A stretch of 64,000 bases of DNA from Nitrosomonadales bacterium (GTDB taxonomy: Bacteria > Pseudomonadota > Gammaproteobacteria > Burkholderiales > Gallionellaceae). The position numbers and the translations under genes were made by a program. Below are positions 6,791-30,406 of the stretch, piece after piece. Under the pieces are notes generated by a model. It did not search any database. It worked only from the letters and a program-made list of their open reading frames with translations, and was not told the DNA's origin. The DNA is taken from the NCBI GenBank assembly GCA_016716325.1, contig JADJWO010000001.1, positions 497,142-561,141 of the forward strand, given 5' to 3'. How positions within the stretch are numbered: the first letter of the stretch is position 1; every line of letters begins with the position of its first letter.

Positions 6791-6924
6791 CGGGAAAGGC
6801 TTGGGAATGAAAGTCCCAAAAAAGTCCCAGTGGAAAGAAAAATGGGTTAGATCATATTTGACCTAACCCATTGATTATATGGCGCGCCCGAAGAGATTCG
6901 AACTCCTGACCCCTTGGTTCGTAG
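6664..6924. repeat. left copy of a ~260-bp imperfect direct repeat (partner at 30148-30406)
   Basis: By-eye alignment runs from atcctgcggca... to ...ccccttggttcgtag. The repeat includes a conserved hairpin (tgggttag...ctaaccca) and the tRNA 3' segment. Confidence 0.85.
6880..6924 (-). other. 45-nt 3' fragment of tRNA-Arg(ACG); distal att-type repeat of the island
   Basis: tggcgcgcccgaagagattcgaactcctgaccccttggttcgtag is identical to 30362-30406, which runs from the CCA end to the anticodon loop. Identity stops there: ttccaa on the left versus ccaagt on the right. Confidence 0.9.
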
Positions 6925-7105
6925 TTCCAAACTGAAAGCGTATCCATATGATTATTAACCGATAATGCCGTGGCGACCGTTGCAACTGTTGCACCACAAT
7001 GCATAACCGTTCATAACTGATTTACGCAAAAGTCACGCACAAAACACTAAGGCCTGGGTAGTCATTGTCACGCACAAATCACTAAGCCCCACCCTTCCTA
7101 TTCAC

Positions 7106-7531
7106 TCAAAATGGCTCAGCGCGCGCTATTTCCAGCAGTTCCTCGTCGCTCATAGCCTCAAGTCTGGAGAGATAGGCTTTGCCGCTATCGGTCACATCAA
7201 CCGTGTGCCGTTCTGGGCTATAAAACCCGCACATCTTCGCGATCTCACGCCAGCCTGCTATGACCGTGGCGGGGTCGTTCTTAAGTTTCGCCACATGGAT
7301 GGCATCCTGAAGCTCCAGAAGCACCTCTGCGCGCGTTAAATCGAGCTCTCTGGCGGTCTGTGCCTCGCGCACGGCTAGAGCGGCTAAAACCTTATGATTT
7401 CTTAACAGCAGCGAGCCGGTAACATGGGCCGAGGATACAGCGAACCCCGCTCTTCGCGCGGCGTCCGAAGCGCAGCGGCTGATGGAATATTCTTCGACAA
7501 AACGGGCTTGGCGGGCTGTAAGTTTCTGCAT
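7106..7531 (-). CDS. phage terminase small subunit (Terminase_2/P27-like)
   Basis: MQKLTARQARFVEEYSISRCASDAARRAGFAVSSAHVTGSLLLRNHKV... fits the LTxxQxxFvxEY...AAxxAG...LL pattern of small terminases. Start moved to ATG 7531. Confidence 0.75.
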   Translation of the reverse strand: MQKLTARQARFVEEYSISRCASDAARRAGFAVSSAHVTGSLLLRNHKVLAALAVREAQTARELDLTRAEVLLELQDAIHVAKLKNDPATVIAGWREIAKMCGFYSPERHTVDVTDSGKAYLSRLEAMSDEELLEIARAEPF

Positions 7532-7835
7532 GGCTGACAACTCCCTTCTTCGCACACAGATCATCGTTCGAAGTGCTTCGTGCGATGTGCGGATTATACC
7601 GCTAATACCATGTATTGTATGGGTTTATATGAGCATCCGCTGGCAGCATCCAAAGCATAAATCCTGCTCAGATTGCTATGTGATGCGCCCGCTTATGCTT
7701 TTTCGATGACTCTGGCAACATCGCCGCGACACTCAGAGCACAAACCCACCAACAGGTCGTGCGCTACTACGAGAAGCACTAAGTGGACGGGCATTATCGG
7801 GGGGGGCTGTTAGTGCGGATGATGCTGGATATGAC

Positions 7836-8390
7836 ATGTTGCTTGCAAGTGCTGTATCGCAGAATGAGTTGTATATCTGTGATTGGCTGATGCAGCATGG
7901 GGCGATGCTTGCGCATGAATCGAGCAAAGTTGTGCTGTATAACGATAACTCGGCACTCCTGCAAAAGTTGATTGATTACACACCAAATGGTTTGAGTGCA
8001 TTTGTTAAACTTAACAATTTATGGTTGGAGTCAATTGCCACCGGAGCTAAACGTTGTGAACCTATTATCGCAAGAGCGATGCTCCACACTGCATCATCCA
8101 CAGACCGAGTTAAAACTCCAAATGGGTATTGTGTGCAGCTTTGTATCGCTGCGCGATATGGATTTATTGATGAGTTTGAGAATCTGGTTCTCAAGGGGGC
8201 AGACCCCAACGAGAGCCTCGACGCGTTTTCGTTAGAAAATATGCCGCTTGTTTGGGCAGTACATTATAGGCAATTAGCCATATGTCTTCGTTTGCTAGCG
8301 CTAGGGGCCAAGATTGCACCTATATCATTATTGGCCAACCTATCTGACCGAGAATGGTTCTATAAAAATGTACTAGATGAAAATCTTTAA
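7836..8390 (+). CDS. ankyrin-repeat-like protein (low-GC cargo)
   Basis: At least two ANK-like repeats: NGYCVQLCIAARYGFIDEFENLVLKGADPNE and MPLVWAVHYRQLAICLRLLALGAKI. Confidence 0.45.
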   Translation: MLLASAVSQNELYICDWLMQHGAMLAHESSKVVLYNDNSALLQKLIDYTPNGLSAFVKLNNLWLESIATGAKRCEPIIARAMLHTASSTDRVKTPNGYCVQLCIAARYGFIDEFENLVLKGADPNESLDAFSLENMPLVWAVHYRQLAICLRLLALGAKIAPISLLANLSDREWFYKNVLDENL

Positions 8391-8696: not shown

Positions 8697-10175
8697 ATGA
8701 CCATGTCCGAAAAATGGAACGAGCGAGGTCGAACCGCCGCCAGCGCCGTCAAGCGCGGCGCCGAAGCCACGGCTAACGGCATACACACTGCCACCAATTT
8801 CGTCGCCCGCAATGACGGGCGCGTCGCTGATGGTGCGCAGGTAGTCACCCAGGTGCTTGGCGGCGGCCTCGATAAAATGGGCGGCAGCCTCGCCGCAGCG
8901 TCCCAGCAGGCCAGCCAATCCCTCCACAGCAACGCATCGCGTCTGGCCGATGCAGCACAAAACTCCATCGTCGGTACAGGGCCAGCAAGCGGCTGGCGCA
9001 AGGGCGCAGGTCTCTTGGCATGGGGGCTTACCAAGGTTGCCACCCACACCGTAGGGGTGACTGCAAATGCCGCCACGGTGCTGGGCAAGGTGACAGCCGC
9101 TACGGGCCGTGTTACCGAACGGTCAGCACCAGCGATTGGCGGCGCAGTAGGTGGTGTTGTGCGCGGTGCTGTCGAGATCACATCCAACGCTGTGGACGCA
9201 GCAGCACTGCCCGCGTCCCGCATCGACGCCATGCGCTCAGAGTTGCGCACCTTGGGCCAGAAAGAAATGCAGCGGGCCGAGGTACTGATGCGGAAGATCG
9301 CATCTGCCAAGCGCGGCAAACGAAAAGCCGAACTGCTCGACTTGCTGGTGGTCGGCGGCATTACCCTGGCCCAAGCCATCCGCAACCCTGCGGGCGTGCC
9401 ACCAGAGATCGAACGTGCTTTCGACTTGGCCTATCCAGGGCTGACACAAACTGAATCGTTTGCGGATGCCGTCAACCGCATGTCCAGCGACCAGTTGACT
9501 GGGCTGGTTTCCAGCATTAAGGGCAAGCTCTTTGAAATTGAACTGGTGGACCACCTGAACGAAGGTGGACTGCCGGACGGGTTCCGCGCTGAACTTGCCC
9601 AGAGTGTTACCCAGCCGGGCTGGGATATCCAGATCACGGATGCACAAGGGAACGTCAACGAACTACTGCAAGCCAAAGCGACAGAGTCGGCCAGCTACGT
9701 GCAGGACGCGCTGGAACGTTACCCCAACATTGATGTGATGACGACCAGCGAAGTGCACGGCCAGTTGGTGGCCATGGGCCTGGCGCAGAACGCACATGAC
9801 AGCGGAATCAGCGAAACAGTTTTGCAGGCCAAAGTTGATGCAGCCACTCATGGAGGTACTGCTTTTGATGCAAGCGACCTGGTGCCATCCAGCATCGGCC
9901 TGGCGGTGATTGCGCTCTCAGTGTTTATGAACAAGGAAGGCAGCCTGCGCGAAAAGGGTGCCGTGTTTGGTACTCGCTCGGCCAAGGCGGGTGTGTCTAG
10001 CGCGGTGGGCAAAGTTGCTATGGTCGTGACGCAGACTTGGTGGCTGGGACTGGTTGCGGGGGTGGGGTCGAGCTGGCTGGCTGCCAGCGGGCACGGGAAG
10101 CGAGAACAGTATGAGGCGCTGCGGGGGGCGCTGGGGGTGATGCAGAATAAGTGGCTGCCGCAACTGAGCATTTGA
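8697..10175 (+). CDS. hypothetical protein: Ala/Gly/Thr-rich N-terminal region, Mrr-cat-like PD-(D/E)xK domain, C-terminal transmembrane helices
   Basis: GKLFEIELVDHLNEGG...PGWDIQITDAQGNVNELLQAKAT fits the E...D-x-D...Q-x-K pattern of Mrr-type nuclease cores. Hydrophobic segments: SSIGLAVIALSVFM and WWLGLVAGVGSSWLAA. The start may be ATG 8703, which has better SD spacing. Confidence 0.5.
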   Translation: MTMSEKWNERGRTAASAVKRGAEATANGIHTATNFVARNDGRVADGAQVVTQVLGGGLDKMGGSLAAASQQASQSLHSNASRLADAAQNSIVGTGPASGWRKGAGLLAWGLTKVATHTVGVTANAATVLGKVTAATGRVTERSAPAIGGAVGGVVRGAVEITSNAVDAAALPASRIDAMRSELRTLGQKEMQRAEVLMRKIASAKRGKRKAELLDLLVVGGITLAQAIRNPAGVPPEIERAFDLAYPGLTQTESFADAVNRMSSDQLTGLVSSIKGKLFEIELVDHLNEGGLPDGFRAELAQSVTQPGWDIQITDAQGNVNELLQAKATESASYVQDALERYPNIDVMTTSEVHGQLVAMGLAQNAHDSGISETVLQAKVDAATHGGTAFDASDLVPSSIGLAVIALSVFMNKEGSLREKGAVFGTRSAKAGVSSAVGKVAMVVTQTWWLGLVAGVGSSWLAASGHGKREQYEALRGALGVMQNKWLPQLSI

Positions 10176-10195
10176 AACTGTTCACCGCAGGCCGC

Positions 10196-10812: not shown

Positions 10813-11001
10813 ATGAACACAATCCATCTAAGCAAAGCAGCCAAACCTACTTCCCAGTCCAGCCTCCTCAAGCGCTGCGCCTTGACCGTTTTCAAAACAG
10901 TTCGCTCGGTTGCCGAGCAAGGCAAGAAAGCGCCTTCAGCACTGGCCCAAAGCTTCACTGAGGTGCGTGATGCGTGGGTCGAAACCCGCCCAAACGTATA
11001 G
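10813..11001 (+). CDS. hypothetical small protein
   Basis: 62-aa ORF preceded by aggag at 10801-10805 (7-nt spacing). First gene of a co-directional set. Confidence 0.4.
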   Translation: MNTIHLSKAAKPTSQSSLLKRCALTVFKTVRSVAEQGKKAPSALAQSFTEVRDAWVETRPNV

Positions 11002-11013
11002 CGGAGAAAAATC

Positions 11014-11292
11014 ATGTTTATTACCGGATTCATGGTTTTTCTCGGCGTTGCACTTATTTTCGTCAAGCTCCCGCGACGGATACTGCTGCGCGCTTTGAAG
11101 CACGATATGTTGATCGACATACTGGTGAGCTGTTTGGTGCTGCTGATTCACTGGGGGACATTCAGCGGCGTGATGGCCGCTACCGTCGCTGGCCTGATGA
11201 CCAGCCTCATGACCTCGGGCCTGAAGAGACTCTTCGGTTACATCGACGGCGACCTCTACTACATCGGAAAGTGGAGGCTCAACGTGGATTAA
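11014..11292 (+). CDS. hypothetical membrane protein
   Basis: 92 aa with 2-3 hydrophobic helices (FITGFMVFLGVALIFV; ILVSCLVLLIHWGTF; VMAATVAGLMTSLM). Confidence 0.45.
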   Translation: MFITGFMVFLGVALIFVKLPRRILLRALKHDMLIDILVSCLVLLIHWGTFSGVMAATVAGLMTSLMTSGLKRLFGYIDGDLYYIGKWRLNVD

Positions 11293-11380
11293 AACCGCTG
11301 CTCGACGTCTTCCTCTGGACGGCAATCGCTGAGATTGCCCGTCAAGTCATCCGCAATGGATGGCGCATCTTGCTCTAACC

Positions 11381-11411
11381 GCCCAGCTAACCCAGCTGGG
11401 CTTTTTCATTT
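11381..11411 (+). terminator. rho-independent terminator-like hairpin
   Basis: Stem gcccagc / gctgggc with a 7-nt loop, followed by tttttcatttt. Confidence 0.55.
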
Positions 11412-11425
11412 TAAGGAGAAATAAA

Positions 11426-12367
11426 ATGGCGCATCTCGTTCAAACCATGGCCTATGCCAACGAAACCCCGTGGCACGGCCTCGGCAACCCCCTCACACCC
11501 AACCAACCTTTGGAGGTCTGGCTACACCAAGCCGGGATGGACTGGTCTATCCAATCCTCCCCCGTGCATTACCAAGGCGACACGCTGCGTCAGTTCAATG
11601 ACGCCAAGGTGCTGTATCGCTCCGACACCCACGATGCCCTGTCCGTGGTCTCCAACCGCTATCAGGTCGTCCAACCCCGTGAAGTGCTGGAGTTCTACCG
11701 CGATCTCGTTGAGGTCGGCGGCTTCGAGCTGGAAACCGCAGGCGTACTCAAAGGCGGCAAGAAGCTCTGGGCACTTGCCCGCACAGGGCAAGAGACATAT
11801 CTCAAGGGTAACGACCAAGTGAAAGCCTACCTGCTGCTGGCAACCGCGTGCGACGGCACGCTGGCGACCACCGCCCAGTTCACCTCCGTCCGCGTCGTGT
11901 GCAACAACACCCTTGCTATCGCCACCAGCGACAGTGCAGGCGCGATCAAAGTGCCGCACTCCACCAAGTTCGACCCCGACAAGGTGAAGCAGCAGCTCGG
12001 CATCGGCATCACCAGCTGGCAGCGCTTCATCGCAGAGATGCGGCGCCTGTCCGACAGGCCCGTGCATCCGTTCGAGGCGCGGCGCTATCTGGTCGAACTG
12101 ATGGGAGATGCCAATCTGCCTTTCCACAGCCAGCCCAACGGCAAAGCCCCCAACCGCGTGTTTGATCTGTACGCCGGGGCGGGCAAAGGTGCCGACCTTG
12201 CCGCCGCGAACGACACCGCGTGGGGGCTGCTCAATGCCGTCACGCAGTTCGTCGACCATGAACGCCGAGCGCGGAGCACAGACAACCGGCTGGATTCTGC
12301 GTGGTTCGGACAAGGTGCTGCCATCAAGCAGCGTGCGCTCGAACAGGCATTAGCCCTCACCGCATAA
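11426..12367 (+). CDS. DUF932 (phage/plasmid-like) protein
   Basis: MAHLVQTMAYANETPWHGLGN... is an N-terminus typical of DUF932 proteins of mobile elements. Strong SD aaggag lies 7 nt upstream of ATG 11426. Confidence 0.7.
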   Translation: MAHLVQTMAYANETPWHGLGNPLTPNQPLEVWLHQAGMDWSIQSSPVHYQGDTLRQFNDAKVLYRSDTHDALSVVSNRYQVVQPREVLEFYRDLVEVGGFELETAGVLKGGKKLWALARTGQETYLKGNDQVKAYLLLATACDGTLATTAQFTSVRVVCNNTLAIATSDSAGAIKVPHSTKFDPDKVKQQLGIGITSWQRFIAEMRRLSDRPVHPFEARRYLVELMGDANLPFHSQPNGKAPNRVFDLYAGAGKGADLAAANDTAWGLLNAVTQFVDHERRARSTDNRLDSAWFGQGAAIKQRALEQALALTA

Positions 12368-12561: not shown

Positions 12562-13212
12562 ATGAAAATCGAATCCAACTATTTCGCCGAGCTGGCGAAG
12601 ATCAACGTCAACGAACACATCGAACGCAAAGGCCAGTTCTCCTATCTGAGCTGGCCGTTCGCTGTCGCCCAGCTACGGCAGTTCGACGCCACCGCAACGT
12701 GGGAAGTGAAACGCTTCGACGGCCTGCCGTATCTGGCAACAGACACCGGCTGCTATGTCGAAGTCTCCGTCACCGTGCGCAGCATCACGCTCTCACAGAT
12801 TCATCCGGTGCTCGACAGTAAAAACCGCCCCTTGCTCACCCCCAGCGCCTTCGACATCAACACCTCGATTCAGCGCTGCTTGGTCAAGGCCATCGCCCTG
12901 CACGGCTTGGGGCTCTATATCTATGCCGGAGAGGATTTACCCGATGAACAAAATGATCCTAAAACACCGTCACAACCATCACCATCGTCACCCACGGTAC
13001 GGCAGTTCCAGAAGCCCAAAGCGGTGAGCGACTCAACCGAGCCGCTGACCGTCAATCAGCTGCGTTTCATCAAGAAACTGATCTCTGAAACCGGCACTGA
13101 CGAAGAACAGCTACTTGGCTTCTTTGGCTTCGACGCACTGGAGAACATCCCCAAGGTCGAGGTGAACCGTGTCCTGAAGATGCTCGAAGGCAACCGCAAG
13201 GAGGCAGCATGA
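12562..13212 (+). CDS. Rad52-like single-strand annealing protein (Sak/DUF1071 type)
   Basis: FSYLSWPFAVAQL... and ...RCLVKAIALHGLGLYIYAGEDLP match the signature pattern of Sak/DUF1071 recombinases. Confidence 0.7.
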   Translation: MKIESNYFAELAKINVNEHIERKGQFSYLSWPFAVAQLRQFDATATWEVKRFDGLPYLATDTGCYVEVSVTVRSITLSQIHPVLDSKNRPLLTPSAFDINTSIQRCLVKAIALHGLGLYIYAGEDLPDEQNDPKTPSQPSPSSPTVRQFQKPKAVSDSTEPLTVNQLRFIKKLISETGTDEEQLLGFFGFDALENIPKVEVNRVLKMLEGNRKEAA

Positions 13213-14069
13213 AAGCGCTCATGAAGATGGTACAGGGTAGCCCGGAGTGGCACGCGCATCGTGCGCAGTACCGCAATGCCAGCGAGACCGCAGCGGTATG
13301 CGGTGCGTCGCCTTGGATGACGCCCTACGAACTATGGCTGGTGAAGACTGGCCGCAAAGTCGTGGAGGAGAATGCAGCCATGCGCCACGGCACCCAGATG
13401 GAGCCCGCTGCGCGTGCCGCTTTCGAGGAGGTCTCCGGACTCATCATGCAACCACAGGTGGTGGTCGATGGGCTGTACTCAGCCAGTTTGGACGGCATCA
13501 CGCTAGGCGGCGATACCCTCTTGGAGATCAAATGCCCCTTCAAGGGGGCGGTATCCGAGCTATGGCAGTCGGTAAAGTCAGGCACGGTGCCCGAGCACTA
13601 CCAGCTTCAGGTGCAGCACCAGCTGATGGTGACGGGGGCAAGGCAAGCGTATCTCTGGGTGTACGACGGCAACGTCGGCATCAAGAACCTGATCCAGCCG
13701 GACGAAATCATCTTTGCTCGGATTCGGGAGTGCTGGGAATTGTTTCAGCCGTTCCTCGACGGGGATACACCGCCACCGCTCACTGACCAAGACACTTGTA
13801 TCCGAACAGATCACAAGTGGCAGACCGCCGCCGAGGAGTACCGAGGCTGGAAATCAGTGGCCGACGAAGCCTCGGCCAAGGCGGATGCCGCCAAAGCCAA
13901 GCTGGTAGAGCTGACGAAACATTCGCGCGAGTCTGGCTTCGGTGTGGCGGTCACCCGGTACTGGAAGGCGGGCAATGTGGACTACAAGAAGGTGGTCGAG
14001 CTACAGGGTGTCGATCTGGAGCAGTATCGGGGGAAGATGCGAGAGGAGGTCAGGGTTAGCGTCGCCTGA
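13209..14069 (+). CDS. YqaJ-family (lambda-Exo-like) viral recombination exonuclease
   Basis: GSPEWHAHRAQYRNASETAAVCG..SPWMTPYELW...LEIKCP motifs. A 4-nt overlap couples it to the annealing-protein gene. Confidence 0.75.
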   Translation: MKALMKMVQGSPEWHAHRAQYRNASETAAVCGASPWMTPYELWLVKTGRKVVEENAAMRHGTQMEPAARAAFEEVSGLIMQPQVVVDGLYSASLDGITLGGDTLLEIKCPFKGAVSELWQSVKSGTVPEHYQLQVQHQLMVTGARQAYLWVYDGNVGIKNLIQPDEIIFARIRECWELFQPFLDGDTPPPLTDQDTCIRTDHKWQTAAEEYRGWKSVADEASAKADAAKAKLVELTKHSRESGFGVAVTRYWKAGNVDYKKVVELQGVDLEQYRGKMREEVRVSVA

Positions 14070-23135: not shown

Positions 23136-23178
23136 GATATGGATGCAACATGAATTTCTGCATCGTTGACAAAGTGCC

Positions 23179-23262
23179 ATGATGACCGAACCCCAACAAT
23201 TCCTGATCTACCAAAGCGAAGACGGCTCCACCCGCATCGACGTGATGCTGGAGGCGGACTGA
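23179..23262 (+). pseudogene. 27-codon remnant resembling the N-terminus of RhuM-family proteins
   Basis: MMTEPQQFLIYQSEDGSTRIDVMLEAD-stop. The FLIYQxEDGxTRIDV pattern matches RhuM-type N-termini as I recall them. The stop overlaps the helicase start as ATGA. Confidence 0.4.
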
Positions 23263-25364
23263 TGAACTTCCTCATCGCCGACACATTCACCGACAGCCTC
23301 GCCAAACTTTCTGGCGATGAGCAGAAAGCTGCCAAAACAACGGCATTCGATCTGCAATTGAACCCGGCCAATCCGGGCATGAGTTTTCATAAGCTGGACA
23401 AGGCGCGGGACAAGAATTTCTGGTCAGTGCGGGTGAGCAGTGACATTCGTATGATCGTCCACAAGACCGATGCCAGTTTGTTGCTGTGCTATGTGGATCA
23501 CCACGACAAGGCGTATGACTGGGCGGAACGGCGCAAACTGGAAACGCACCCGCAAACCGGCGCGGCGCAGTTGGTCGAGATACGCGAGACGGTGCAGGAA
23601 ATCGTGGTGCCGGTCTATGTGCAGACTGAAATTGCTCTCGCGCCGAAGCCTGCACCCGCACTGAAACCGCTATTCCTTGGCAGAACCGATGATGAACTGC
23701 TCGGTTACGGCGTACCTGCCGAGTGGCTGGACGACGTGAAGAACGCGACCGAGGACACGCTGCTGGCCTTGTGCGACCACCTGCCTGCCGAGGCGGCAGA
23801 GGCACTGCTGGAACTGGCGACGGGTGGCAAGCCTCGCGTGTCCAAGCCTGTTGCAGCAACGGTGAATCCATTCGATCATCCCGATGCACAGCGCCGCTTC
23901 CGCGTGATGACCAATGTGGAGGAGTTGCAGCGCGCGCTCGATTTTCCCTGGGAAAAGTGGACGGTCTTCCTGCACCCCGAACAGCGGCAATGGGTGGAGC
24001 GCGATTACACCGGCCCGGCGCGCGTCTCCGGTTCAGCCGGTACGGGCAAGACGATTGTTGCTTTGCACCGTGCTGCTTATCTGGCGCGCACACATTCCGA
24101 AGCCCGTGTCCTGTTGACAACCTTTTCCGACACGCTGGCGAGCGCACTGAATACCAAGCTGAAGCGGCTGTTGGGCAATGAGCCGCGCCTTGCAGAACGC
24201 ATAGATGTTCATTCGCTCGATGCCATCGGCCTGCGGCTCTACAAGTCGCACATCGGGCAGGCGACGATTGTCAGCCGCGATATTATCCGCGAGTTGCTGA
24301 AGAGGTCTGCCAGTGCCGTGGGTGGTCACAAATTTGGCCTGCATTTCCTGCTAACAGAATGGGAGCAGGTGGTGGATGCCTGGCAATTGGAGAACTGGGA
24401 TGCGTATCGTGATGTTGCGCGCCTCGGCAGAAAGACCCGGTTGCCGGAAGCACAGCGCGCGGTCTTATGGTCGATCTTCGAGCGCGTGCGCGCCGGATTG
24501 CAGGAGCGCAAGCTAATTACGCACGCGCAGCTATTCACAGCACTGGCCGCAGCCCTTTCCGCCAACAAGAATGTGGTGTTCGACTTCGCCGTCGTGGACG
24601 AGGCGCAGGACGTAGGCGTCGCCCATCTTCGCTTCTTTGCCGCCTTGGGTGGCGGTCGGCCCAATGCACTCTTTTTCGCAGGTGATCTCGGGCAACGCAT
24701 CTTCCAGCAGCCATTCTCATGGAAGGGCATCGGCGTGGATATTCGTGGGCGGTCGCGCACCTTGCGCGTCAATTACCGCACTTCGCACCAAATCCGCACG
24801 CAGGCTGATCGCCTGCTCGGCCCGGTAGTCAGCGACGTGGATGGCAACTCCGAGGATCGCAGCGACACCGTTTCAGTATTCAACGGCCCGCCGCCAGTAA
24901 TTTACACATTCAAGGACGAAGGCGAGGAAATCAAGGCCGTCGGCAACTGGATTGCGGAGCTGGCCAAGTCGGGTGTGCTACCGCACGAGTTTGGTGTATT
25001 CGTCCGCTCCGAAGCGCAACTGGAACGGGCGCAGGCAGCAGTAAAGGCGGCAGGTTTGGCCTTCAAGATACTCGATGAACACGTCGAGACCCTCAGCGGT
25101 CATGTCTCGATCAGCACCATGCACCTCGCCAAAGGATTAGAGTTTCGTGCCGTCGTGGTGATGGCCTGCGATGATGAGGTCATCCCTTTGCAGGAACGCA
25201 TCGAAACGGTCGGCGATGATGCTGATCTGCAAGAGGTATATGACACTGAGCGACATCTGCTTTATGTAGCCTGCACGCGAGCGAGAGATCATTTGCTGGT
25301 GACTAGCGTCGAGCCTGCTTCAGAATTCCTTGATGACATGAATATAGCTGGCCATATCAGCTGA
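23262..25364 (+). CDS. UvrD/Rep-family (SF1) helicase with an extra ~110-aa N-terminal RelE/ParE-like domain
   Basis: Walker A GSAGTGKT, DEAQD, and C-terminal MHLAKGLEFRAVVV...YVACTRARDHL. The N-terminal FWSVRVSSDIRMIVHKTDASLLLCYVDHHDKAY resembles the RelE/ParE core pattern (inference). Confidence 0.75.
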   Translation: MNFLIADTFTDSLAKLSGDEQKAAKTTAFDLQLNPANPGMSFHKLDKARDKNFWSVRVSSDIRMIVHKTDASLLLCYVDHHDKAYDWAERRKLETHPQTGAAQLVEIRETVQEIVVPVYVQTEIALAPKPAPALKPLFLGRTDDELLGYGVPAEWLDDVKNATEDTLLALCDHLPAEAAEALLELATGGKPRVSKPVAATVNPFDHPDAQRRFRVMTNVEELQRALDFPWEKWTVFLHPEQRQWVERDYTGPARVSGSAGTGKTIVALHRAAYLARTHSEARVLLTTFSDTLASALNTKLKRLLGNEPRLAERIDVHSLDAIGLRLYKSHIGQATIVSRDIIRELLKRSASAVGGHKFGLHFLLTEWEQVVDAWQLENWDAYRDVARLGRKTRLPEAQRAVLWSIFERVRAGLQERKLITHAQLFTALAAALSANKNVVFDFAVVDEAQDVGVAHLRFFAALGGGRPNALFFAGDLGQRIFQQPFSWKGIGVDIRGRSRTLRVNYRTSHQIRTQADRLLGPVVSDVDGNSEDRSDTVSVFNGPPPVIYTFKDEGEEIKAVGNWIAELAKSGVLPHEFGVFVRSEAQLERAQAAVKAAGLAFKILDEHVETLSGHVSISTMHLAKGLEFRAVVVMACDDEVIPLQERIETVGDDADLQEVYDTERHLLYVACTRARDHLLVTSVEPASEFLDDMNIAGHIS

Positions 25365-25376: not shown

Positions 25377-26024
25377 ATGCCAATTCCTCAGCTCCACTTT
25401 GACGATGAATCGGAAGGCCTACCGCGACAACTGGTGCCGCTGCGCTTTGCCGTTTTAGTGACTGGCCTCACAGTTATCCAGGTCATTGAAATGACCACCA
25501 ATGCCTACCAGCTATCTGATGATGTCAATATTTCTCTGCTGGATTGCCACGAGTTTAGCGGTAACAAAATTCGAAAGTGCAGCCTTACTGCCACCAAAGC
25601 TTTACTGACAGCAGTGAGGACATTAGGCATCGAAAAAGAGCGCTTTAAAAATATACCAAGCGGTTGGTTTGTCTACTCTGATGAATTGGCTGCGGCATTT
25701 TTAAATTGGATAGATTTTACTGTGGGGCTTGAGTCTGTCTCACTCCACGATATGGGCTTGAATTGGAACCCTGCCCTGCATCCCTACGAAGCAGAAATCA
25801 AAGCCTGCTCGGTCATGCCTGCGTCCAAGTCTGCCTTATCCGCGCGCGAAAAAAGAAAACGCGCAACAGCCGAGAAGCATTCGGCTTTGTACTCGGACTA
25901 TATCGAGCTAAAGAAAAATAATCCGAAAAAGTCGGATGTACAACTTTCTGCCACCATTGCAAAAAAATACAACAAGAACCCTGACACTGTTCGACGCATC
26001 ATCTCTGATAGAAAAAATAGCTGA
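25377..26024 (+). CDS. hypothetical protein (low GC)
   Basis: 215-aa ORF with a basic C-terminal region (REKRKRATAEKH...). No motif recognised. Confidence 0.4.
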   Translation: MPIPQLHFDDESEGLPRQLVPLRFAVLVTGLTVIQVIEMTTNAYQLSDDVNISLLDCHEFSGNKIRKCSLTATKALLTAVRTLGIEKERFKNIPSGWFVYSDELAAAFLNWIDFTVGLESVSLHDMGLNWNPALHPYEAEIKACSVMPASKSALSAREKRKRATAEKHSALYSDYIELKKNNPKKSDVQLSATIAKKYNKNPDTVRRIISDRKNS

Positions 26025-26318: not shown

Positions 26319-27299
26319 ATGAATACGTTATCAAGCAACAAGACAGACATTGCTATCACCAATAGCGATTTTCTGATGTACGGCTTTGCAGGACTTGATC
26401 TAGACGAACAGTTTTGGGTCGCAGGTTTCCCCGGTGATCCTTACGATGTTCAACCTTGGATGTGGGGTGGAAAGGGAGCACCGCCTGGCCTGCCTGGATT
26501 CATTCGACCCAACCACAACAACTATATCGCCGTAAGCAGTTTCAAGCGTGGCACAGACGGCAGGTTCCATCGTCGAAAGGCAAATTTCGGACGCATGTTC
26601 ATGGTCATGATCGATGACGTGGGCACCAAAGTCGGATTTGAACGCCTCGCGCTACTTCCGAGTGCTTTAGTAGAGACCAGTCCGGGTAACTATCAGGCTT
26701 GGTACTTCTTGGTCACACCAGAACCCGACCGGGGCAAAGCCGAGCGGCTCATTGACGGCATGATTGCAGCGGGGCTGACTGCCGACGCCAGTGATCCTGG
26801 TATGAAAGGTGTGACGCGCTACGGTCGTCTGCCTGTTGGCGTCAATGGCAAGGGTAAGTATGTCGAGAAACTGGGCGCTCCGTTCGTTCAGACCGTTGCT
26901 GTCTGGGACCCCGCGACGCGCTACAGCATCGAGGAGATCGCTGCCGCCTATGGCGTCGATCTCACTGCCGCACCTCCGCCTACGCGCCGTACTAACCGGC
27001 GTATGCCATCCGCTGCCCCCATCGGCGGTGATGCCCTCGTCGCGCAATTGGTAGATGCGGGCCTGTATCTGGAGCCCGAACTCAGTGTTGCAGGGATGCA
27101 CCGCATCGTTTGTCCTTGGGTGCATGAACATACCGACGAAGAGCCCAGCGGCACGGCCTATTTTGAGCCTAGTGAAGACAACGACTCTCGTGGAGGCTTT
27201 AAGTGCCATCACGGTCACTGCGCGCACCGCCGCGTCTCTGATTTGAAGCTCTTCCTGTCGTATCTGCAATCCCTGACCAAGGAGAACCACCATGCCTAA
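26319..27299 (+). CDS. RepB'-type / primase-polymerase-like DNA primase with a C-terminal Cys/His zinc-binding motif
   Basis: MVMIDDVG (acidic DxD-type motif), ETSPGNYQAWYFL, and C-terminal CPWVHEHT...FKCHHGHC. Confidence 0.6.
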   Translation: MNTLSSNKTDIAITNSDFLMYGFAGLDLDEQFWVAGFPGDPYDVQPWMWGGKGAPPGLPGFIRPNHNNYIAVSSFKRGTDGRFHRRKANFGRMFMVMIDDVGTKVGFERLALLPSALVETSPGNYQAWYFLVTPEPDRGKAERLIDGMIAAGLTADASDPGMKGVTRYGRLPVGVNGKGKYVEKLGAPFVQTVAVWDPATRYSIEEIAAAYGVDLTAAPPPTRRTNRRMPSAAPIGGDALVAQLVDAGLYLEPELSVAGMHRIVCPWVHEHTDEEPSGTAYFEPSEDNDSRGGFKCHHGHCAHRRVSDLKLFLSYLQSLTKENHHA

Positions 27300-28953
27300 T
27301 AATATTGAAACCAGTAACGCAGTACGTCAGGCGGCTGAAGAAACCGCCAATCCAGAAGCCATTGTGACGGCTGCGCTGGGGCAGCTTCAAGCAAACCCTG
27401 ACGCGCTGTATCAGGAACATGTGATCGCCGCACTGAAGCTCGTTCGTCAGAATGACCCTGTTGCATATGCCCGCTTGATCAACCGCGCTAAAGGTCACAA
27501 AGGCAGGCTCGAAGAGCTTACAGCGGCGGGACGGGAAAATCGCGATGACAGCAATCTCGCCCAACTCATTGCCCTCGCTCGCGAATCGTCTAGGCTCGGC
27601 CACGCCAAAGATGGCAAAGGGGTCGCTATTGTCACAGTCAAGGGAATCCGCCAGACTTGGTACATCGGTTCGTATGGATATGCCGAGTGGCTGCGTGCTG
27701 CTTTCTATAAATCGAGGGGCTCGGGGGTGGGTGACACACTGTTGACGAGCGCCATCGCGACGCTCTCCTCCATCGGCAACTTTGAAGGCGAGGAATTCAC
27801 TGTGCATATGCGCTGCGCCAAGCATGGAGATGACTACTACATTGATCTGTGCGATGACTCGTGGCAGGCAATTCGTCTTAATGCCGACGGTTGGTCAGTG
27901 GTTAGCGCCCCGCCCGTCCTGTTCACTCGCACTCGCAACATGCGTCCGCTCCCCACGCCCGTCTCTGGCAGGATCGACGAACTGTGGCAGTACGCCAATG
28001 TTCCGGAGCTCCTTTACCCCTTGGCACTCACTTGGTTGATCGATAGTTTCCGCCCGGACACTCCGTTCTCCATTCTGGAACTGTGCGGCGAGCAAGGAAG
28101 TGCCAAAAGTTCAACCCAGCGCTGTCTGCGCGACCTGACCGATCCCAACATGGTAGCGCTACGCGGCAAGCCGAAGATGACCGAAGACATTTACATAGCG
28201 GCCAACAATAGCTGGGTGGTGAGCTTCGAGAATCTCTCCAGTCTGACCTCAGACCAGCAGGATGCACTTTGCACGTTGGCGACGGGGGGCGGATTCGCGT
28301 CGCGGCAGCTGTACTCCAATGGCGACGAGTTCGTTATGGAGACAAAGCGGCCCGTCATGCTGAACGGCATCAGCCCTGTAGCGACACGCCCCGATCTGAT
28401 CGAGCGCGTCATCAGTATCGAGTGTCCGAGCATACCGGCAGCACAGCGTCGGGACGAGCAGTCGCTCGCGGCGGAATGGCAAGACAGTTATCCGGCCATT
28501 TTCGGGGGATTGCTGGACTTGTTCTCCGCAGCGCTTCGCCATCTCCCTACGGTTAACCTCGACCAGAAGTTTCGCATGGCCGACTTCCAACTGTTGGGCG
28601 AGGCCGTTTGTATGGCGCTAGATCACCCTCCCGGATATTTCACCGAGCTATATGAAGCATCTGTACGCGAAGGGGTAGATCGTAGTCTGGAAACTTATGG
28701 GGTCGCCAATGCATTACAGGTTTTCATGGCGCAACAGAAGAACAAGGCTTGGGAAGGCACGGTACTTACACTGAAATCCCAGCTTGAAGGTGTATGTGGT
28801 CAAGATAAGTCGGCTTGGCCGAAATCGGCACGGGGCTTGTCTGGGCAGCTTGCACGGATCAGGCCGGGGCTGCGTCAACGCGGGATTCAAATCGAGCACT
28901 TGGGACATAGTCGTGCCGGTGCAAAGCTTCGCATCACCCTCATGAACGACTAA
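27292..28953 (+). CDS. P-loop NTPase, putative replicative (SF3-like) helicase of the island
   Basis: 553 aa. Walker-A-like CGEQGSAKSST. An 8-nt overlap couples it to the primase gene. Confidence 0.45.
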   Translation: MPNNIETSNAVRQAAEETANPEAIVTAALGQLQANPDALYQEHVIAALKLVRQNDPVAYARLINRAKGHKGRLEELTAAGRENRDDSNLAQLIALARESSRLGHAKDGKGVAIVTVKGIRQTWYIGSYGYAEWLRAAFYKSRGSGVGDTLLTSAIATLSSIGNFEGEEFTVHMRCAKHGDDYYIDLCDDSWQAIRLNADGWSVVSAPPVLFTRTRNMRPLPTPVSGRIDELWQYANVPELLYPLALTWLIDSFRPDTPFSILELCGEQGSAKSSTQRCLRDLTDPNMVALRGKPKMTEDIYIAANNSWVVSFENLSSLTSDQQDALCTLATGGGFASRQLYSNGDEFVMETKRPVMLNGISPVATRPDLIERVISIECPSIPAAQRRDEQSLAAEWQDSYPAIFGGLLDLFSAALRHLPTVNLDQKFRMADFQLLGEAVCMALDHPPGYFTELYEASVREGVDRSLETYGVANALQVFMAQQKNKAWEGTVLTLKSQLEGVCGQDKSAWPKSARGLSGQLARIRPGLRQRGIQIEHLGHSRAGAKLRITLMND

Positions 28954-29032
28954 TAGCGACTGATAAGTCCATCACCCCTATCACTTCTCGTGACGATGTG
29001 ACTGTGGTGATGGTCATTCAGCATTTTTTATC

Positions 29033-29392
29033 ATGGCAATGATCCTACTCCCCCGCTTCATCAGATTTCGTGATGCGCCGGACTATCTAGGCATGGATCG
29101 CAATCGATTCAGTGCCGAAGTCAGGCCGTATCTGACGGAAGTACCCATAGGGGTGCAAGGGATTGCCTTCGACCGACTTGAACTGGATGCCTGGGCGGAG
29201 CAATATATGCGCTGCAACGGTCGCCCCGGTCGAAAGAAAGGAATTTTGACATGGGACGAAAAAGAGCCGCTGGACTCTACCTGCGTAACGGGGTCTGGCA
29301 CATCGACAAGCAGTATCGAGGACTCCGAATTTGCGAGAGCACTGGCGAAAGTGAGCTCGCCAAAGCGGAAGAGTTCCTCACAAAGAGGCTAG
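29033..29392 (+). CDS. AlpA/excisionase-like small DNA-binding protein (3' end uncertain)
   Basis: FIRFRDAPDYLGMDRNRFSAEVRPYLTEVPIGVQGIAFDRLELDAW fits the excisionase/AlpA HTH pattern. The tracked ORF overlaps int by ~140 nt, so its end is doubtful. Confidence 0.5.
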   Translation: MAMILLPRFIRFRDAPDYLGMDRNRFSAEVRPYLTEVPIGVQGIAFDRLELDAWAEQYMRCNGRPGRKKGILTWDEKEPLDSTCVTGSGTSTSSIEDSEFARALAKVSSPKRKSSSQRG

Positions 29393-30267
29393 ACGAAGCA
29401 AGGCAAGCTCGGGTTTTTGGTATTCGTCCAAAGCGGAGTTTTCGCGCGGCGGCGACCCGATACCTGAACGAAAATAGCCATAAGCGCAGTATCGCAACGG
29501 ATGCCCACCATTTGAAACTGGTTGACCCTTTTATTGGTAGGCTTTCGTTGGACTCAGTGCATATGGGTACGCTTCAGCAATTCATCAGTGCGAGAAAAAG
29601 GGACGGCGTAAAAACCAAGACGATTAACGCATCGTTAGCAGTCATCCGGCATCTGCTGAATATGGCAGCATCAGAGTGGCTGGATGACAACAATCTAACT
29701 TGGCTACCCGTTGCCCCAAAGATCAAGCTGCTGAAAGTGACCGATGCACACAAGCCCTATCCGCTGTCTTGGGAAGAGCAAACCGCGTTGTTCACCGAAT
29801 TGCCCGCCCACCTTCAGCCGATGGCCCTGTTTAAGGTTAATACGGGCTGCCGTGATGGAGAGGTCTGTAGTCTGCGCTGGGACTGGGAGGTAAAAGTAGA
29901 AGAGCTGGACACGAGTGTATTCATCATCCCCGATGCATACGTCAAGAATGGTGACGAGCGACTGGTGGTGCTTAATCGGGTAGCTAAGTCGGTAGTTGCA
30001 GGACAACGCGGAAAGCACCCCGTCTACGTCTTCACATATCGAGGAAAGCCGATTGAAACCATGAACAACTCGGGCTGGCAGCACGCAAGGCGGCGAGTCA
30101 ATCTTCAGCATGTAAGGGTTCATGACCTGAAACATACTTTTGCCGAGATCCTGCGGCAGCGCGCCAAAGCATGGGCTCATTGTTCAGTCGGACAGCTTGA
30201 TGAGCTTGTGGATGCGTCAAACTGCATCGCTGATAAACGCAGTCGGATGAATCGCAGCCTAGCATGA
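29251..30267 (+). CDS. int: tyrosine-recombinase-family integrase, probably inactive (no Tyr after box II)
   Basis: NTGCRDGE (Arg I), KNGDER, and HDLKHTF (box II). The remaining 41 aa (AEILRQRAKAWAHCSVGQLDELVDASNCIADKRSRMNRSLA) contain no tyrosine and no LLGH motif. Confidence 0.75.
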   Translation: MGRKRAAGLYLRNGVWHIDKQYRGLRICESTGESELAKAEEFLTKRLDEARQARVFGIRPKRSFRAAATRYLNENSHKRSIATDAHHLKLVDPFIGRLSLDSVHMGTLQQFISARKRDGVKTKTINASLAVIRHLLNMAASEWLDDNNLTWLPVAPKIKLLKVTDAHKPYPLSWEEQTALFTELPAHLQPMALFKVNTGCRDGEVCSLRWDWEVKVEELDTSVFIIPDAYVKNGDERLVVLNRVAKSVVAGQRGKHPVYVFTYRGKPIETMNNSGWQHARRRVNLQHVRVHDLKHTFAEILRQRAKAWAHCSVGQLDELVDASNCIADKRSRMNRSLA

Positions 30268-30406
30268 TCGACAGGAAGGCTGGGAATGAAAGTCCCAAAA
30301 AGGTCAAGTGGAAAGAAAAATGGGTTGATACAGTTTGCGCTAACCCATTGATTACAAAATATGGCGCGCCCGAAGAGATTCGAACTCCTGACCCCTTGGT
30401 TCGTAG
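30148..30406. repeat. right copy of the ~260-bp imperfect direct repeat
   Basis: Partner of 6664-6924. Covers the int 3' end, the tRNA terminator hairpin and the 45-nt tRNA 3' segment. Confidence 0.85.
30311..30347 (-). terminator. rho-independent terminator downstream of tRNA-Arg
   Basis: On the minus strand, tgggttagcgcaaactgtatcaaccca is followed by tttttctttc. A hairpin sits at the same position in the left repeat copy, with a different loop. Confidence 0.6.

Follow-up and report, generated by a model that had tools for sequence, protein, structure and literature searches.

Does the 23.4-kb segment that abuts a tRNA-Arg gene in the window (the whole stretch of DNA analysed, 64,000 nucleotides) represent a phage satellite with defence cargo, as a preliminary description proposed, and is it still one? 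From its observed anatomy, homologies and gene damage, its recurrence elsewhere and the unoccupied site in a relative, positions 6925-30358 (Table 1) are probably a phage-satellite island similar to phage-inducible chromosomal islands (PICIs), which has since been immobilised and partly degraded.

Table 1. Features of the tRNA-Arg island and its junctions (window coordinates)
Feature	Position	Strand	Basis
Relic outside distal att core	6660..6876		Repeat comparison
Distal att core, exact 48-nt copy	6877..6924		Repeat search
Two 23-nt direct repeats (GTCACGCACAAA[A/T]CACTAAG), 35 nt apart, in att core-terS interval	7032..7089	+	Repeat search
TerS, small terminase subunit	7106..7564	-	PF03592 (E 3.8e-14), phrog_51
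184-aa protein	7836..8390	+	Marginal ankyrin-repeat matches, weak PDC-M72A match
492-aa protein	8697..10175	+	Central domain matches PADLOC candidate PDC-M72B
Two small conserved ORFs: 62 aa (10813-11001), 92 aa (11014-11292)	10813..11292	+	tblastx collinearity with L104, L083
DUF932 protein	11360..12367	+	PF06067 (E 5.8e-70)
Sak single-strand annealing protein	12562..13212	+	PF06378, phrog_8492; relatives
YqaJ/RecE-like exonuclease	13209..14069	+	PF09588, phrog_434
ResIII/BPTD_3080-family restriction endonuclease (res), pseudogene	14232..~17300	+	NF046055
Type III-type DNA methyltransferase (N6_N4 MTase, mod)	17309..20074	+	PF01555; PADLOC MTase_III, 1435 bits
TrlF-family AAA-like (SMC/ABC-type) ATPase, 1013 aa	20094..23135	+	NF045780, 680 bits (cutoff 350)
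RhuM-family gene relic, 5' end, 79 nt	23180..23258	+	100% identity to L191 9003-9073
UvrD-like SF1 helicase, RelE/HigB-like N-terminal domain	23262..25364	+	Profile searches
215-aa protein, low GC	25377..26024	+	Small family
RepB'-type (AEP) primase, C-terminal Cys/His cluster	26319..27299	+	RepB_primase PF16793, phrog_4861
SF3 (D5-type) helicase or replication initiator, 553 aa	27292..28953	+	Walker A, fold match
Integrase-associated small protein, 119 aa; overlaps integrase start	29033..29392	+	phrog_13517
Tyrosine integrase, defective	29251..30267	+	PF00589
Spacer, integrase stop codon to tRNA-Arg, with terminator-like hairpin	30268..30358		Left hairpin copy scored
Proximal att core (30359-30406) inside intact tRNA-Arg(ACG) gene (30362-30438)	30359..30438	-	ARAGORN, Rfam, repeat search

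Attachment site and integrase

The tRNA-Arg(ACG) gene has a tRNA-Ser(GCT) gene as its neighbour (30459-30552, minus strand; ARAGORN and Rfam), and the last 45 nt of the 48-nt direct repeat that brackets the segment are the tRNA-Arg 3' end. The identical 45-nt repeat described previously is thus exact, but it belongs to a longer one of ~265 nt (6660-6924 versus 30142-30406), with 90.6% identity over 266 nt, rising to 97% in the 104 nt encoding the integrase C-terminus. Outside the distal core, 6660-6780 is the terminal (3') part of an integrase gene and shares both the deletion junction and the Tyr to Cys codon with the island integrase; 6781-6876 is a spacer bearing a terminator-like hairpin with a 14-bp stem (6841-6872, minus strand). 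Beside this integrase relic the ABC permease genes are missing, leaving a chromosomal deletion scar. With an integrase relic in it and a chromosomal deletion adjoining it, the distal repeat cannot be called a clean duplication of att. The two 23-nt repeats found between the core and terS are candidate arm-type integrase sites or a candidate packaging site.

On the right the island is flanked by lysC and recJ, and on the left by a gene for an ABC ATPase and, beyond it, genes in synteny with those of relatives; no phage structural or conjugation genes lie just outside the repeats. The lysC, tRNA-Ser and tRNA-Arg genes are kept in relatives and, rather than the block being vertically conserved, the tRNA-Arg site is empty in L112, a close relative (LysC 92% identical) in which ordinary signalling genes follow the tRNA. 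In two other relatives (L122 and L132) different integrase-bearing elements occupy the same tRNA. At the level of sequence, these comparisons support a horizontal origin of the island.

The island integrase is 74% identical to the intact integrase of its closest relative (L104) and 46% identical to the enzyme of Achromobacter phage CF418P1. Through an in-frame deletion the enzyme lacks 15 aa, with AAGVSLEDRQDLLGH removed and the LLGH histidine among the lost residues; the catalytic Tyr is replaced by Cys. With both the Tyr and the 15-aa segment lost the enzyme is dead, which makes excision by the island's own integrase impossible, so that of the earlier wording "is, or was" a satellite, for which comparison of loci gives support, we retain only "was". 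The small protein encoded across the integrase start is 44% identical to phiPSA1 gp18, which likewise overlaps the integrase gene of that phage, and is probably an excisionase or directionality factor; integrase and partner are both of temperate-phage type. An AlpA identity had been suggested for this 119-aa protein, but it is unconfirmed, as profile searches gave no Phage_AlpA match.

Backbone genes and related islands

The tRNA-proximal order proposed earlier (primase, helicase, AlpA, int) stands for the primase, the helicase, which is of SF3 type, and int. The primase is 54-72% identical to its relatives; RepB'-type primases are typical of mobilisable IncQ-type plasmids. In the 553-aa P-loop protein the Walker A motif GEQGSAKS is invariant, and the AF2 model of the protein (pLDDT 75) retrieved in Foldseek only SF3/D5-type primase-helicases (ASFV PrimPol, D5/E5, NrS-1 and SaPIbov1 Rep), which supports a predicted fold like that of an SF3 replicative helicase. 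At least 961 homologues make up the large family that the primase and this helicase, as a pair, define.

The islands that its members form are small and lack structural genes; they carry an integrase, frequently an AlpA-type gene and, time and again, a TerS homologue encoded on the other strand. In L082, L088 and the P0014 contig, primase and helicase are followed by an opposite-strand TerS without structural genes; the integrase is also present in L082 and P0014, L088 being a short contig of 4.1 kb, and the minimal form of the architecture is ~6 kb. Other members carry cargo: L081 has a tRNA-Thr, integrase, primase and helicase followed by a type I R-M system, and L083 has AlpA, primase, helicase, type I R-M, Sak and DUF932. 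L104, collinear with the island of the window, uses the same tRNA-Arg; the stretch covered runs from a 91-aa ORF through DUF932, Sak, YqaJ, two different cargo genes, the primase, helicase, an xis-like gene and the integrase to the tRNA-Arg 3' end. L108-L110 form a second island family, which has another replicase and an integrase of P4 type. Structural, lysis and conjugation genes were found in none of the related primase/SF3 helicase/TerS/integrase loci.

As previously described, the window also holds a Sak/YqaJ pair with a DUF932 gene. The DUF932 protein is 72-83% identical in L083 and L104, YqaJ is 67% identical in L104, and the 92-aa ORF matches phrog_29412. Being conserved in L083 and L104, DUF932, Sak, YqaJ and the two small ORFs are backbone and not cargo. 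DUF932 proteins, as well as TrlF, are often found on conjugative plasmids and also occur on mobilisable ones.

The solitary TerS at the distal end, on the opposite strand, was likewise recovered. The Pfam match spans only profile positions 1-74 of 141, the N-terminal half, but the protein is full length relative to its homologues (39-51% identity in L082, L088 and L108-L110) and to phage TerS, the phage matches being distant. Among families for capsid, portal, tail, lysis, TerL, relaxase and T4SS functions, none matched an island ORF, in agreement with the preliminary description as regards the phage genes, and the window copy yielded neither a capsid-size or morphogenesis gene nor a regulator of AlpA or Stl type. 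The published PICI definition lists five core functions (integrase, regulator, primase-replicase, small terminase and capsid morphogenesis) and forbids tail, holin and portal genes (PMC10085698); by this definition four of the five SatelliteFinder core functions are present in the island, and none of the forbidden ones.

Every backbone gene (integrase, Sak, YqaJ, primase and TerS) has phage homologues, and the window copy is clearly decaying, which would fit a temperate phage integrated at tRNA-Arg that was stripped of structural and lysis functions, kept integrase, partner protein, terS and the genes for recombination and replication, and acquired defence genes at a later time. We consider this improbable, because the compact layout free of structural genes recurs in independent loci, including the ~6-kb form and L104, which indicates a stable element type and not random erosion. 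In addition, terS stands alone at the end of the element, and profile and PHROG searches of the neighbouring ORFs revealed no TerL relic beside it.

It is also unlikely, though less so, that the segment was never a satellite but an integrative, self-replicating or mobilisable island, chiefly devoted to defence and moved by conjugative mobilisation or transformation, in which the TerS-like protein only binds DNA. The plasmid associations of DUF932 and TrlF, the partial Pfam match of TerS, the lack of a known capsid-remodelling gene or helper phage, and a more distant helicase relative (L103) whose element has a serine recombinase and no TerS all fit such an island. However, relaxase, coupling protein and T4SS genes were not found in the island or its flanks, the homologues of TerS prove full length when set against the phage proteins, and TerS recurs at one and the same place in two island families that otherwise differ; the temperate-phage type of the integrase and its partner also argues against it.

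Cargo slots and proposed history of the probable satellite island

Since the DUF932/Sak/YqaJ block is conserved in L083 and L104, the cargo, earlier taken as one block of 7.8-26 kb, occupies two slots, at ~7.6-10.8 kb (slot 1) and 14.1-26.0 kb (slot 2).

Slot 1 carries the 184-aa ankyrin-like gene and the gene for the 492-aa protein, which has a hydrophobic C-terminus and invariant residues E280, D310 and Q325-x-K327; its structure model is of poor quality. Its homologues lie at island edges, adjoining type I R-M genes and terS, in L108-L110, where this gene and TerS bracket the cargo. This arrangement, the tandem copies seen in L109 and the integrase relic at the outer junction, evidence of a former tandem partner, could point to a tandem composite at tRNA-Arg that was never one mobile unit, its left part (terS, the ankyrin-like gene and the 492-aa gene) coming from the L108-L110 family and its right part being of L104 type. 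Such an origin is highly improbable: a search of the whole window found no third, internal or partial copy of the att core, TerS belongs to the primase-helicase family too (L082, L088 and the P0014 contig), and the DNA-level match to L108 is limited to the 492-aa gene, without its flanks, which fits cassette exchange over fusion.

In slot 2, the type III-like R-M module reported earlier is not intact, as res is a multiply frameshifted pseudogene. Frame changes in tblastn and alignment to the intact L192 gene reveal ~7 frameshifting indels (near 15203, 15245, 16438, 16520, 16591, 16735 and 16746), all outside homopolymers. The methyltransferase, whose central (target-recognition) segment is divergent, appears to be intact. 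The UvrD-like helicase, the last gene of the res-mod cassette, bears out its earlier assignment, with 96% and 93% identity to its counterparts in L191 and L192 and 59% to a Gemmobacter plasmid gene. RhuM is annotated in L191 and L192, whereas here the gene has lost ~920 nt of its body. Nested between mod and this relic is the TrlF gene, of low GC (47-51%), which elsewhere stands alone on plasmids and mobile elements; on these sequence comparisons, the res-mod-helicase cassette appears to travel widely, with a stand-alone TrlF gene nested inside it. The gene had been described as a PHP-SMC-like ATPase. The ATPase part holds, the C-terminal ABC/SMC-type region matching Ppl (PADLOC E 1.9e-33; NCBIfam 122 bits), but the N-terminal 330 aa have no Pfam match to PHP, and the literature searched contained no experimental defence phenotype for TrlF. 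The 215-aa protein belongs to a family with 76 representatives among 1.84 billion.

We propose that the satellite island entered by site-specific recombination into the tRNA-Arg(ACG) 3' end. In intact relatives, infection by or induction of a helper phage would lead to excision and to replication by the island's own primase and helicase; TerS would then direct the helper's large terminase, so that island DNA is packaged in helper capsids. TerS-type piracy encoded by islands has precedent (PMC6739421), and both helper dependence and this hijacking are putative here. The two slots, between terS and the recombination block and between YqaJ and the primase, hold accessory genes, presumably active in defence; the R-M, the one classical system among them, is broken. 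Decay presumably followed: the integrase was disabled, res became a pseudogene and RhuM was deleted, and at the outer junction lies what is left of a second integrase end with identical defects, fused to a chromosomal deletion. With integrase and restriction enzyme broken, the island is an ordinary, decaying example of an already known element type and now a fixed genomic fossil; any present contribution would come from its intact cargo, namely the methylase, TrlF, the helicase and the 492-aa protein.

Comparison with known systems

The slot 2 cassette shares the res, mod, helicase order of BPTD_3080-family R-M cassettes on the Gemmobacter plasmid and on the Gallionellaceae contigs L191 and L192. 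In these two contigs the slot upstream of the helicase is taken by RhuM, preceded in L191 by Gabija, whereas in the island it is taken by TrlF, next to a RhuM relic and a frameshifted res. TrlF resembles Ppl in its C-terminal ATPase region and in that it is also found stand-alone on mobile elements, but its 122 bits fall well short of the Ppl equivalog cutoff of 1000, Pfam detects no PHP domain, and the protein belongs to a family of its own, TrlF (680 bits, cutoff 350).

P4-like satellites have in common with the island tRNA-associated integration, their own primase-helicase function and variable hotspots for defence systems, Ppl, the relative of TrlF, being listed as an anti-phage protein (PADLOC, NCBIfam). 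In contrast, psu, delta, sid, epsilon and a fused primase-helicase of P4 alpha type all went undetected in profile searches of the island, which has a TerS gene that P4 does not; its integrase differs from the P4 arm-binding type, which the L109 family does have.

PICIs (SaPIs and the Gram-negative EcCICFT073 type) differ in host, here a betaproteobacterium of the Gallionellaceae, and in size, the 23.4-kb island exceeding the typical PICI. The island also differs in its RepB'-type primase, in a backbone with Sak, YqaJ and DUF932, which lie outside the five PICI core functions (PMC10085698), in lacking a detected AlpA/Stl regulator or capsid-morphogenesis gene, in its inactive integrase and in its putative helper dependence. 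Nevertheless, both are integrated site-specifically and have the integrase gene at one of their ends, both encode their own primase and initiator helicase, the fold of the latter matching SaPIbov1 Rep among other SF3 helicases, both carry a lone small-terminase-type gene in the absence of TerL, capsid, tail and lysis genes, and both hold accessory or defence genes in variable slots (PMC10085698, PMC6739421).

Boundaries and gene content of the island

The island spans 6925-30358 (23,434 bp) between two copies of an exact 48-nt direct repeat (6877-6924 and 30359-30406), which includes the last 45 nt of the tRNA-Arg gene, so that the preliminary description, which had placed a 45-nt copy of the tRNA 3' end on either side, was correct about the boundaries. 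Over the whole window, Rfam detected nothing beyond this tRNA and the neighbouring tRNA-Ser. The GC content of the island is mosaic, ranging from 0.47 to 0.64. That it is a composite of two islands is highly improbable, as no third copy of the att core, whole or partial, was found within the window, and with it no internal att site.

Genes were called with Pfam, PHROGs, NCBIfam and PADLOC. These searches recovered the solitary TerS on the opposite strand at the distal end, the Sak/YqaJ recombination pair with its DUF932 gene, the UvrD-like helicase in the interior and the RepB'-type primase, all of which had been described from the sequence. No island ORF matched capsid, portal, tail, lysis, TerL, relaxase or T4SS families in the four collections, upholding the earlier statement that large terminase, portal, capsid, tail and lysis genes are lacking. 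The backbone genes other than the integrase are full length relative to their homologues. No near match to the island was found in a DNA search of a phage collection, and plasmid DNA matched the R-M genes only.

Genes of the island and adjoining tRNA genes, in window coordinates
Feature	Position	Strand	Match or remark
TerS	7106-7564	-	PF03592, phrog_51
184-aa protein	7836-8390	+	marginal ankyrin matches
492-aa protein	8697-10175	+	central domain vs PADLOC candidate PDC-M72B, E 1.6e-19
Small ORFs	10813-11001, 11014-11292	+	
DUF932	11360-12367	+	
Sak	12562-13212	+	
YqaJ	13209-14069	+	
BPTD_3080-family restriction gene (res)	14232-~17300	+	
Type III-type methyltransferase (mod)	17309-20074	+	PF01555, PADLOC MTase_III 1435 bits
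TrlF-family ATPase	20094-23135	+	NF045780, 680 bits (cutoff 350)
UvrD-like helicase, RelE/HigB-like N-terminus	23262-25364	+	
215-aa protein	25377-26024	+	
RepB'-type primase	26319-27299	+	RepB_primase
553-aa protein	27292-28953	+	no family match in profile searches
119-aa protein	29033-29392	+	phrog_13517
Tyrosine integrase	29251-30267	+	PF00589, phrog_1
tRNA-Arg(ACG)	30362-30438	-	ARAGORN, Rfam
tRNA-Ser(GCT)	30459-30552	-	ARAGORN, Rfam

Between the distal att core and the stop codon of terS there are two 23-nt direct repeats with a 35-nt spacing (7032-7054 and 7067-7089), which may serve as arm-type integrase sites or belong to a packaging site. Upstream of the primase gene, a gap of 295 nt holds a palindrome of the perfect type (GCTGAGCGAAAAT/ATTATCGCTCAGC, 26020-26045) with a matching inverted copy 152 nt away (26187-26200), a pair that is a candidate operator or origin element.

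The terminal repeat extends beyond the core, with 6660-6924 and 30142-30406 sharing 90.6% identity over 266 nt. It is made up of the final ~120 nt of the integrase gene (97% identity over 104 nt), a spacer of ~95 nt bearing a terminator-like hairpin with a 14-bp stem, and the 48-nt core; the integrase relic at 6660-6780 shares the deletion junction and the Cys codon of the island integrase. The start of the fused-type ABC ATPase gene (4547-6529) is now ~130 nt from this relic, across a junction stretch at 6530-6660, and the two permease genes that relatives carry directly upstream of the ABC ATPase (7669-9995 in the comparison locus L001) are both absent across the entire window. The left, outer junction of the island is therefore the scar of a chromosomal deletion or rearrangement and not an intact flank. 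In the simplest history, a related element would formerly have stood in tandem at tRNA-Arg; nearly all of it would have been deleted, the ABC permease genes being lost with it, and the integrase ends would finally have been made alike, either through gene conversion or by copying of the defective end from one to the other. In the comparison locus L115, the flank just 3' of tRNA-Arg resembles the spacer and hairpin of the window (82% over 91 nt, up to the contig end).

Integration site and integrase

The island is followed on the right by aspartokinase (lysC) and recJ, and on the left by the ABC ATPase gene and then by genes syntenic with relatives; no phage structural or conjugation genes, which the preliminary description had named as evidence that would count against it, were found in the immediate flanks outside the repeats. 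Two adjacent ORFs (158 and 163 aa, 3601-4565) without a Pfam match lie between the ABC ATPase and the syntenic genes. Farther away in the window, which is part of a 2.33-Mb contig, the minus strand of a block with lower GC (47883-55280, 0.51-0.55) carries genes for NnrS, a TonB-dependent receptor, cytochrome cd1 nitrite reductase (NirS) and cytochrome subunits like those of nitric oxide reductase (COX1-type and cytochrome c); judged by these domains, it is a denitrification cluster rather than a mobile element.

An empty site in the same species was sought by exact-protein look-up of the flanking ABC ATPase, which returned no record; this protein is at most 78% identical to those of Sideroxydans and Gallionella MAGs. 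In relatives the ABC gene has no adjoining tRNA and is accompanied by the two permease genes missing here, so the left flank was unusable as an empty-site reference, and synteny on the lysC side was substituted. The order lysC, tRNA-Ser(GCT), tRNA-Arg(ACG) is kept in metagenomic relatives. In one of them (L112, a 300-kb contig with a LysC of 92% identity) the tRNA is followed by ordinary signalling genes and no island, and in two others (L122 and L132) different integrase-bearing elements occupy the same tRNA. The tRNA-Arg site is variably occupied, as expected of a horizontally acquired island, and the vertical conservation without an empty site that had also been named as contrary evidence was not what we found. 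Some relatives have two tandem full tRNA-Arg(ACG) genes after tRNA-Ser (L112, 11399-11578; L139, 2869-3055), in contrast to the window, with one intact copy and a 48-nt fragment.

The integrase lies at the island end adjoining the tRNA. We compared it with phage integrases (46-49% identity) and with the intact integrase (367 aa, 74% identity) of the closest relative island, L104, an integrase whose gene stops ~20 nt short of the 3' end of the same tRNA-Arg. Fifteen residues (AAGVSLEDRQDLLGH) are missing from the window protein, a conserved histidine among them, and its Pfam match ends at profile position 141 of 172. Since AHCS stands where L104 and the phage integrases have (T/S)HYS, the catalytic tyrosine is replaced by cysteine. 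We predict from these changes that the window integrase is catalytically dead, in which case this copy would not excise by itself.

The small partner of the integrase, initially called AlpA/xis-like, could not be kept as an AlpA: the 119-aa protein has no Pfam or NCBIfam AlpA match, no similarity to the AlpA of the related locus L083 and no match to a solved structure. It is 44% identical to phiPSA1 gp18, a small protein overlapping the phage integrase gene. Among the relatives, L083 does have a PF05930 AlpA, placed upstream of its primase, and so does L103, where no primase was called and the AlpA immediately precedes the helicase homologue.

Related islands and the two cargo slots

The primase and the adjoining helicase are separate genes. 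The Walker A motif of the 553-aa protein (GEQGSAKS) is invariant across 24 homologues, and its AlphaFold model (pLDDT 75) matched in the PDB only SF3/D5-type primase-helicases (ASFV PrimPol, vaccinia D5, MPXV E5, NrS-1 and the SaPIbov1 replication initiator), with weak but uniform scores (E 6e-4 to 0.1, TM ~0.3). The motif and the modelled fold point to an SF3 replicative helicase or initiator, which makes the first assignment as P-loop helicase-like right and more precise. At least 961 homologues exist, all unannotated and mainly in Betaproteobacteria.

Gene orders of related islands and of R-M cassettes in comparison loci
Locus	Gene order	Remark
L081	tRNA-Thr, integrase, two small genes, primase, helicase, type I R-M	
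L082	integrase, small genes, primase, helicase, TerS(-)	minimal element, ~6 kb
P0014 contig	integrase, primase, helicase, one gene, TerS(-)	
L088	primase, helicase, TerS(-)	
L083	AlpA, primase, helicase, type I R-M, Sak, DUF932	
L104	91-aa ORF, DUF932, Sak, YqaJ, two unrelated genes, primase, helicase, xis-like gene, integrase	
Gemmobacter plasmid cassette	res, y, mod, x, helicase	helicase 59% identical
L191 cassette	res, mod, GajA, GajB, RhuM, helicase	helicase 96% identical
L192 cassette	res, two small genes, mod, RhuM, helicase	

The L104 and window islands are collinear, their proteins sharing 59-83% identity. An HMM of the window TerS found homologues in L082, in L088 and in a second island family (L108-L110), which has a different replicase and a P4-type integrase. 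This family has a type I R-M slot in which KAP, NERD or DUF3800 genes are nested, flanked by TerS and by homologues of the 492-aa protein at 68-91% identity. We conclude from these gene orders that the small architecture without structural genes is a stable element type, that TerS is a recurrent component of it, and that DUF932, Sak and YqaJ belong to the backbone and not to the cargo. Beside this recurrence, a prophage remnant, of which the integrase and its partner of temperate-phage type might be taken as survivors, is quite improbable. The single cargo region of 7.8-26 kb proposed earlier does hold defence-type cargo, but the backbone block divides it into two slots, one from terS to the recombination block and one from YqaJ to the primase. 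In the L108-L110 family the same TerS type is paired with a ~960-aa protein (no Pfam match) and two small genes, and L109 seems to hold the segment with terS and the ~960-aa gene in two tandem copies (1-6512 and 19987-21506).

In the first slot, the 492-aa protein reaches 92% identity in other metagenomes, and its homologues in L108-L110 are without the ankyrin-like neighbour. The PDC-M72B match spans only the central domain of this much longer protein, and that to PDC-M72A is weak (E 6.6e-4, 17 bits). Because the model is poor (pLDDT 47) and its Foldseek matches are meaningless, a PD-(D/E)xK-like reading of the invariant E/D/QxK residues is a guess. In comparisons across metagenomes, the genes for the 492-aa protein and for the UvrD-like helicase show far greater conservation than the island backbone (54-74%) or host housekeeping genes (ABC ATPase 78%, LysC 92%), which indicates that these cargo cassettes have spread horizontally, widely and in recent times. 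More than 120 clusters contain the helicase at 85% identity or higher, and contigs labelled Nitrotoga, Sulfuritalea and Alphaproteobacteria are among them.

The second slot holds a travelling cassette made up of res, small genes in some cases, mod, a variable slot and, conserved in the last position, the helicase. The type III-like R-M module described earlier stood only in its methyltransferase, a 921-aa ORF downstream of res that is full length relative to homologues except for a variable central segment. On the first res ORF, NF046055 matched positions 1-317 of 970 only (457 bits, below the cutoff of 800). The gene shows at least five reading-frame changes relative to intact homologues of 1015-1028 aa, a length of intact restriction subunit that it does not attain, and its alignment with the L192 gene (84% identical), which is intact, reveals about seven frameshifting indels, near 15203, 15245, 16438, 16520, 16591, 16735 and 16746. 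As the indels lie outside homopolymers and the neighbouring genes of 2-3 kb are intact, we rejected phase variation and homopolymer sequencing error as their source, and generic sequencing error is unlikely. RhuM is likewise broken: 23180-23258 is a 79-nt relic of its 5' end (100% identity to L191 9003-9073), corresponding to about the first 75 nt of the RhuM gene located before the helicase in L191 and L192, with ~920 nt missing. The relic is fused to the helicase start, so that the TTG-started ORF 23166-25364 gains a spurious 32-codon N-terminal extension.

The variable slot of the window cassette holds a low-GC TrlF gene, whose product aligns over residues 16-995 with positions 1-943 of the 944 of NF045780. 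TrlF genes elsewhere stand alone, in varied contexts on many plasmids, and for this reason we take TrlF to be a self-contained module nested in the cassette. The protein had been called a PHP-SMC-like ATPase; it is an ATPase of the TrlF family, and Pfam detects no PHP domain in its N-terminal 330 aa, whereas the anti-phage protein Ppl has one. Against the Ppl profile (NF042955/PADLOC Ppl) it scores 122 bits for a cutoff of 1000, the best stretch being C-terminal only; it is related to Ppl without belonging to that family. The window helicase matches GajB profiles; no GajA is present, and L191 has a genuine GajA-GajB pair beside the helicase orthologue, as separate genes, so in its context the window helicase is not a Gabija GajB. 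PDB sequence searches with the N-terminal regions of TrlF and the helicase gave no matches, and a literature search on TrlF, PDC-M72 and DUF932 in satellites found nothing relevant. The 215-aa protein after the helicase is a member of a rare family in which Pfam recognises no informative domain, and it does not resemble the small proteins that related islands encode.

Other cassettes vary in the same regions: L191 has the complete Gabija pair between mod and RhuM (5220-8941), L192 a PDDEXK_3 gene between res and mod (5215-6141), and L084, from the Gemmobacter plasmid, small genes without assignment at variable positions (4401-4820 and 7913-8491). These arrangements suggest that the BPTD_3080 cassette is a hotspot for defence-gene insertion inside an R-M operon.

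Relation to phage satellites and other mobile elements

We know of no satellites studied in the Gallionellaceae or other environmental Betaproteobacteria. If the island is a satellite, defence-carrying satellite islands reach these iron-oxidising bacteria and other environmental Betaproteobacteria, and the RepB'-type primase, the specific SF3 helicase and the specific TerS provide a searchable signature of the family. The YqaJ-primase slot of these islands, and the slot upstream of RhuM/helicase within BPTD_3080 R-M cassettes, are two reusable landmarks in the search for new defence genes. With integrase, restriction enzyme and RhuM all broken, only some of the cargo of the window copy is likely to be functional, and this copy is a poor choice for mobility experiments.

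A bolder, linked pair of proposals, to which we give a low probability, is that the betaproteobacterial islands with this primase, SF3 helicase and TerS form an undescribed satellite family with a Sak/YqaJ/DUF932 block in its backbone, and that a dedicated slot of the BPTD_3080 cassette, upstream of RhuM/helicase, captures stand-alone defence genes, TrlF in the window and Gabija in L191. As the integrase and its partner are of temperate-phage type, members of the family, even the integrase-dead window copy, might be excised in trans by the integrase of a related helper. PrrC is a back-up within a type I R-M locus, and by analogy the nested slot gene might fire once R-M is disabled. In that case the 492-aa protein, found at the edges of defence slots, would be one more uncharacterised effector.

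Regarding known systems, relaxase, T4CP and T4SS domains of integrative conjugative or mobilisable elements are absent from the island and its flanks, and psu/delta/sid, epsilon and the alpha-type fused primase-helicase of P4-like satellites are unmatched in the island ORFs (Pfam and PHROGs). The PICI core used by SatelliteFinder comprises an integrase, a regulator of AlpA or Stl/MerR type, a primase-replicase, a capsid-morphogenesis gene and a small terminase, and tail, holin, portal and head-tail connector genes are forbidden (PMC10085698). No gene of the island matched known capsid-morphogenesis or size-redirection families (Pfam and PHROGs), though a novel one may lie among the unassigned ORFs, and neither an AlpA nor a repressor match was found in the window, the 119-aa partner matching phrog_13517 and phiPSA1 gp18 only. 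Counted by function, four of the five core components are there, a possible regulator or excision factor being the fourth beside the integrase, the primase-replicase and the small terminase, and none of the forbidden genes was found in the island ORFs or immediate flanks (Pfam and PHROGs). That the element is an integrative island of a non-satellite kind is unlikely. The redirection of helper packaging by TerS-type proteins of satellites is an established mechanism (PMC6739421). The helper-dependent satellite with defence cargo that was first proposed is supported in its core by the architecture of related islands, and needs correction for the broken integrase, res and RhuM; helper dependence, packaging and defence activity of the cargo are inferred. 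We consider that the island is probably a now immobilised PICI-like satellite that carries defence-type cargo and belongs to an uncharacterised family of betaproteobacterial islands.
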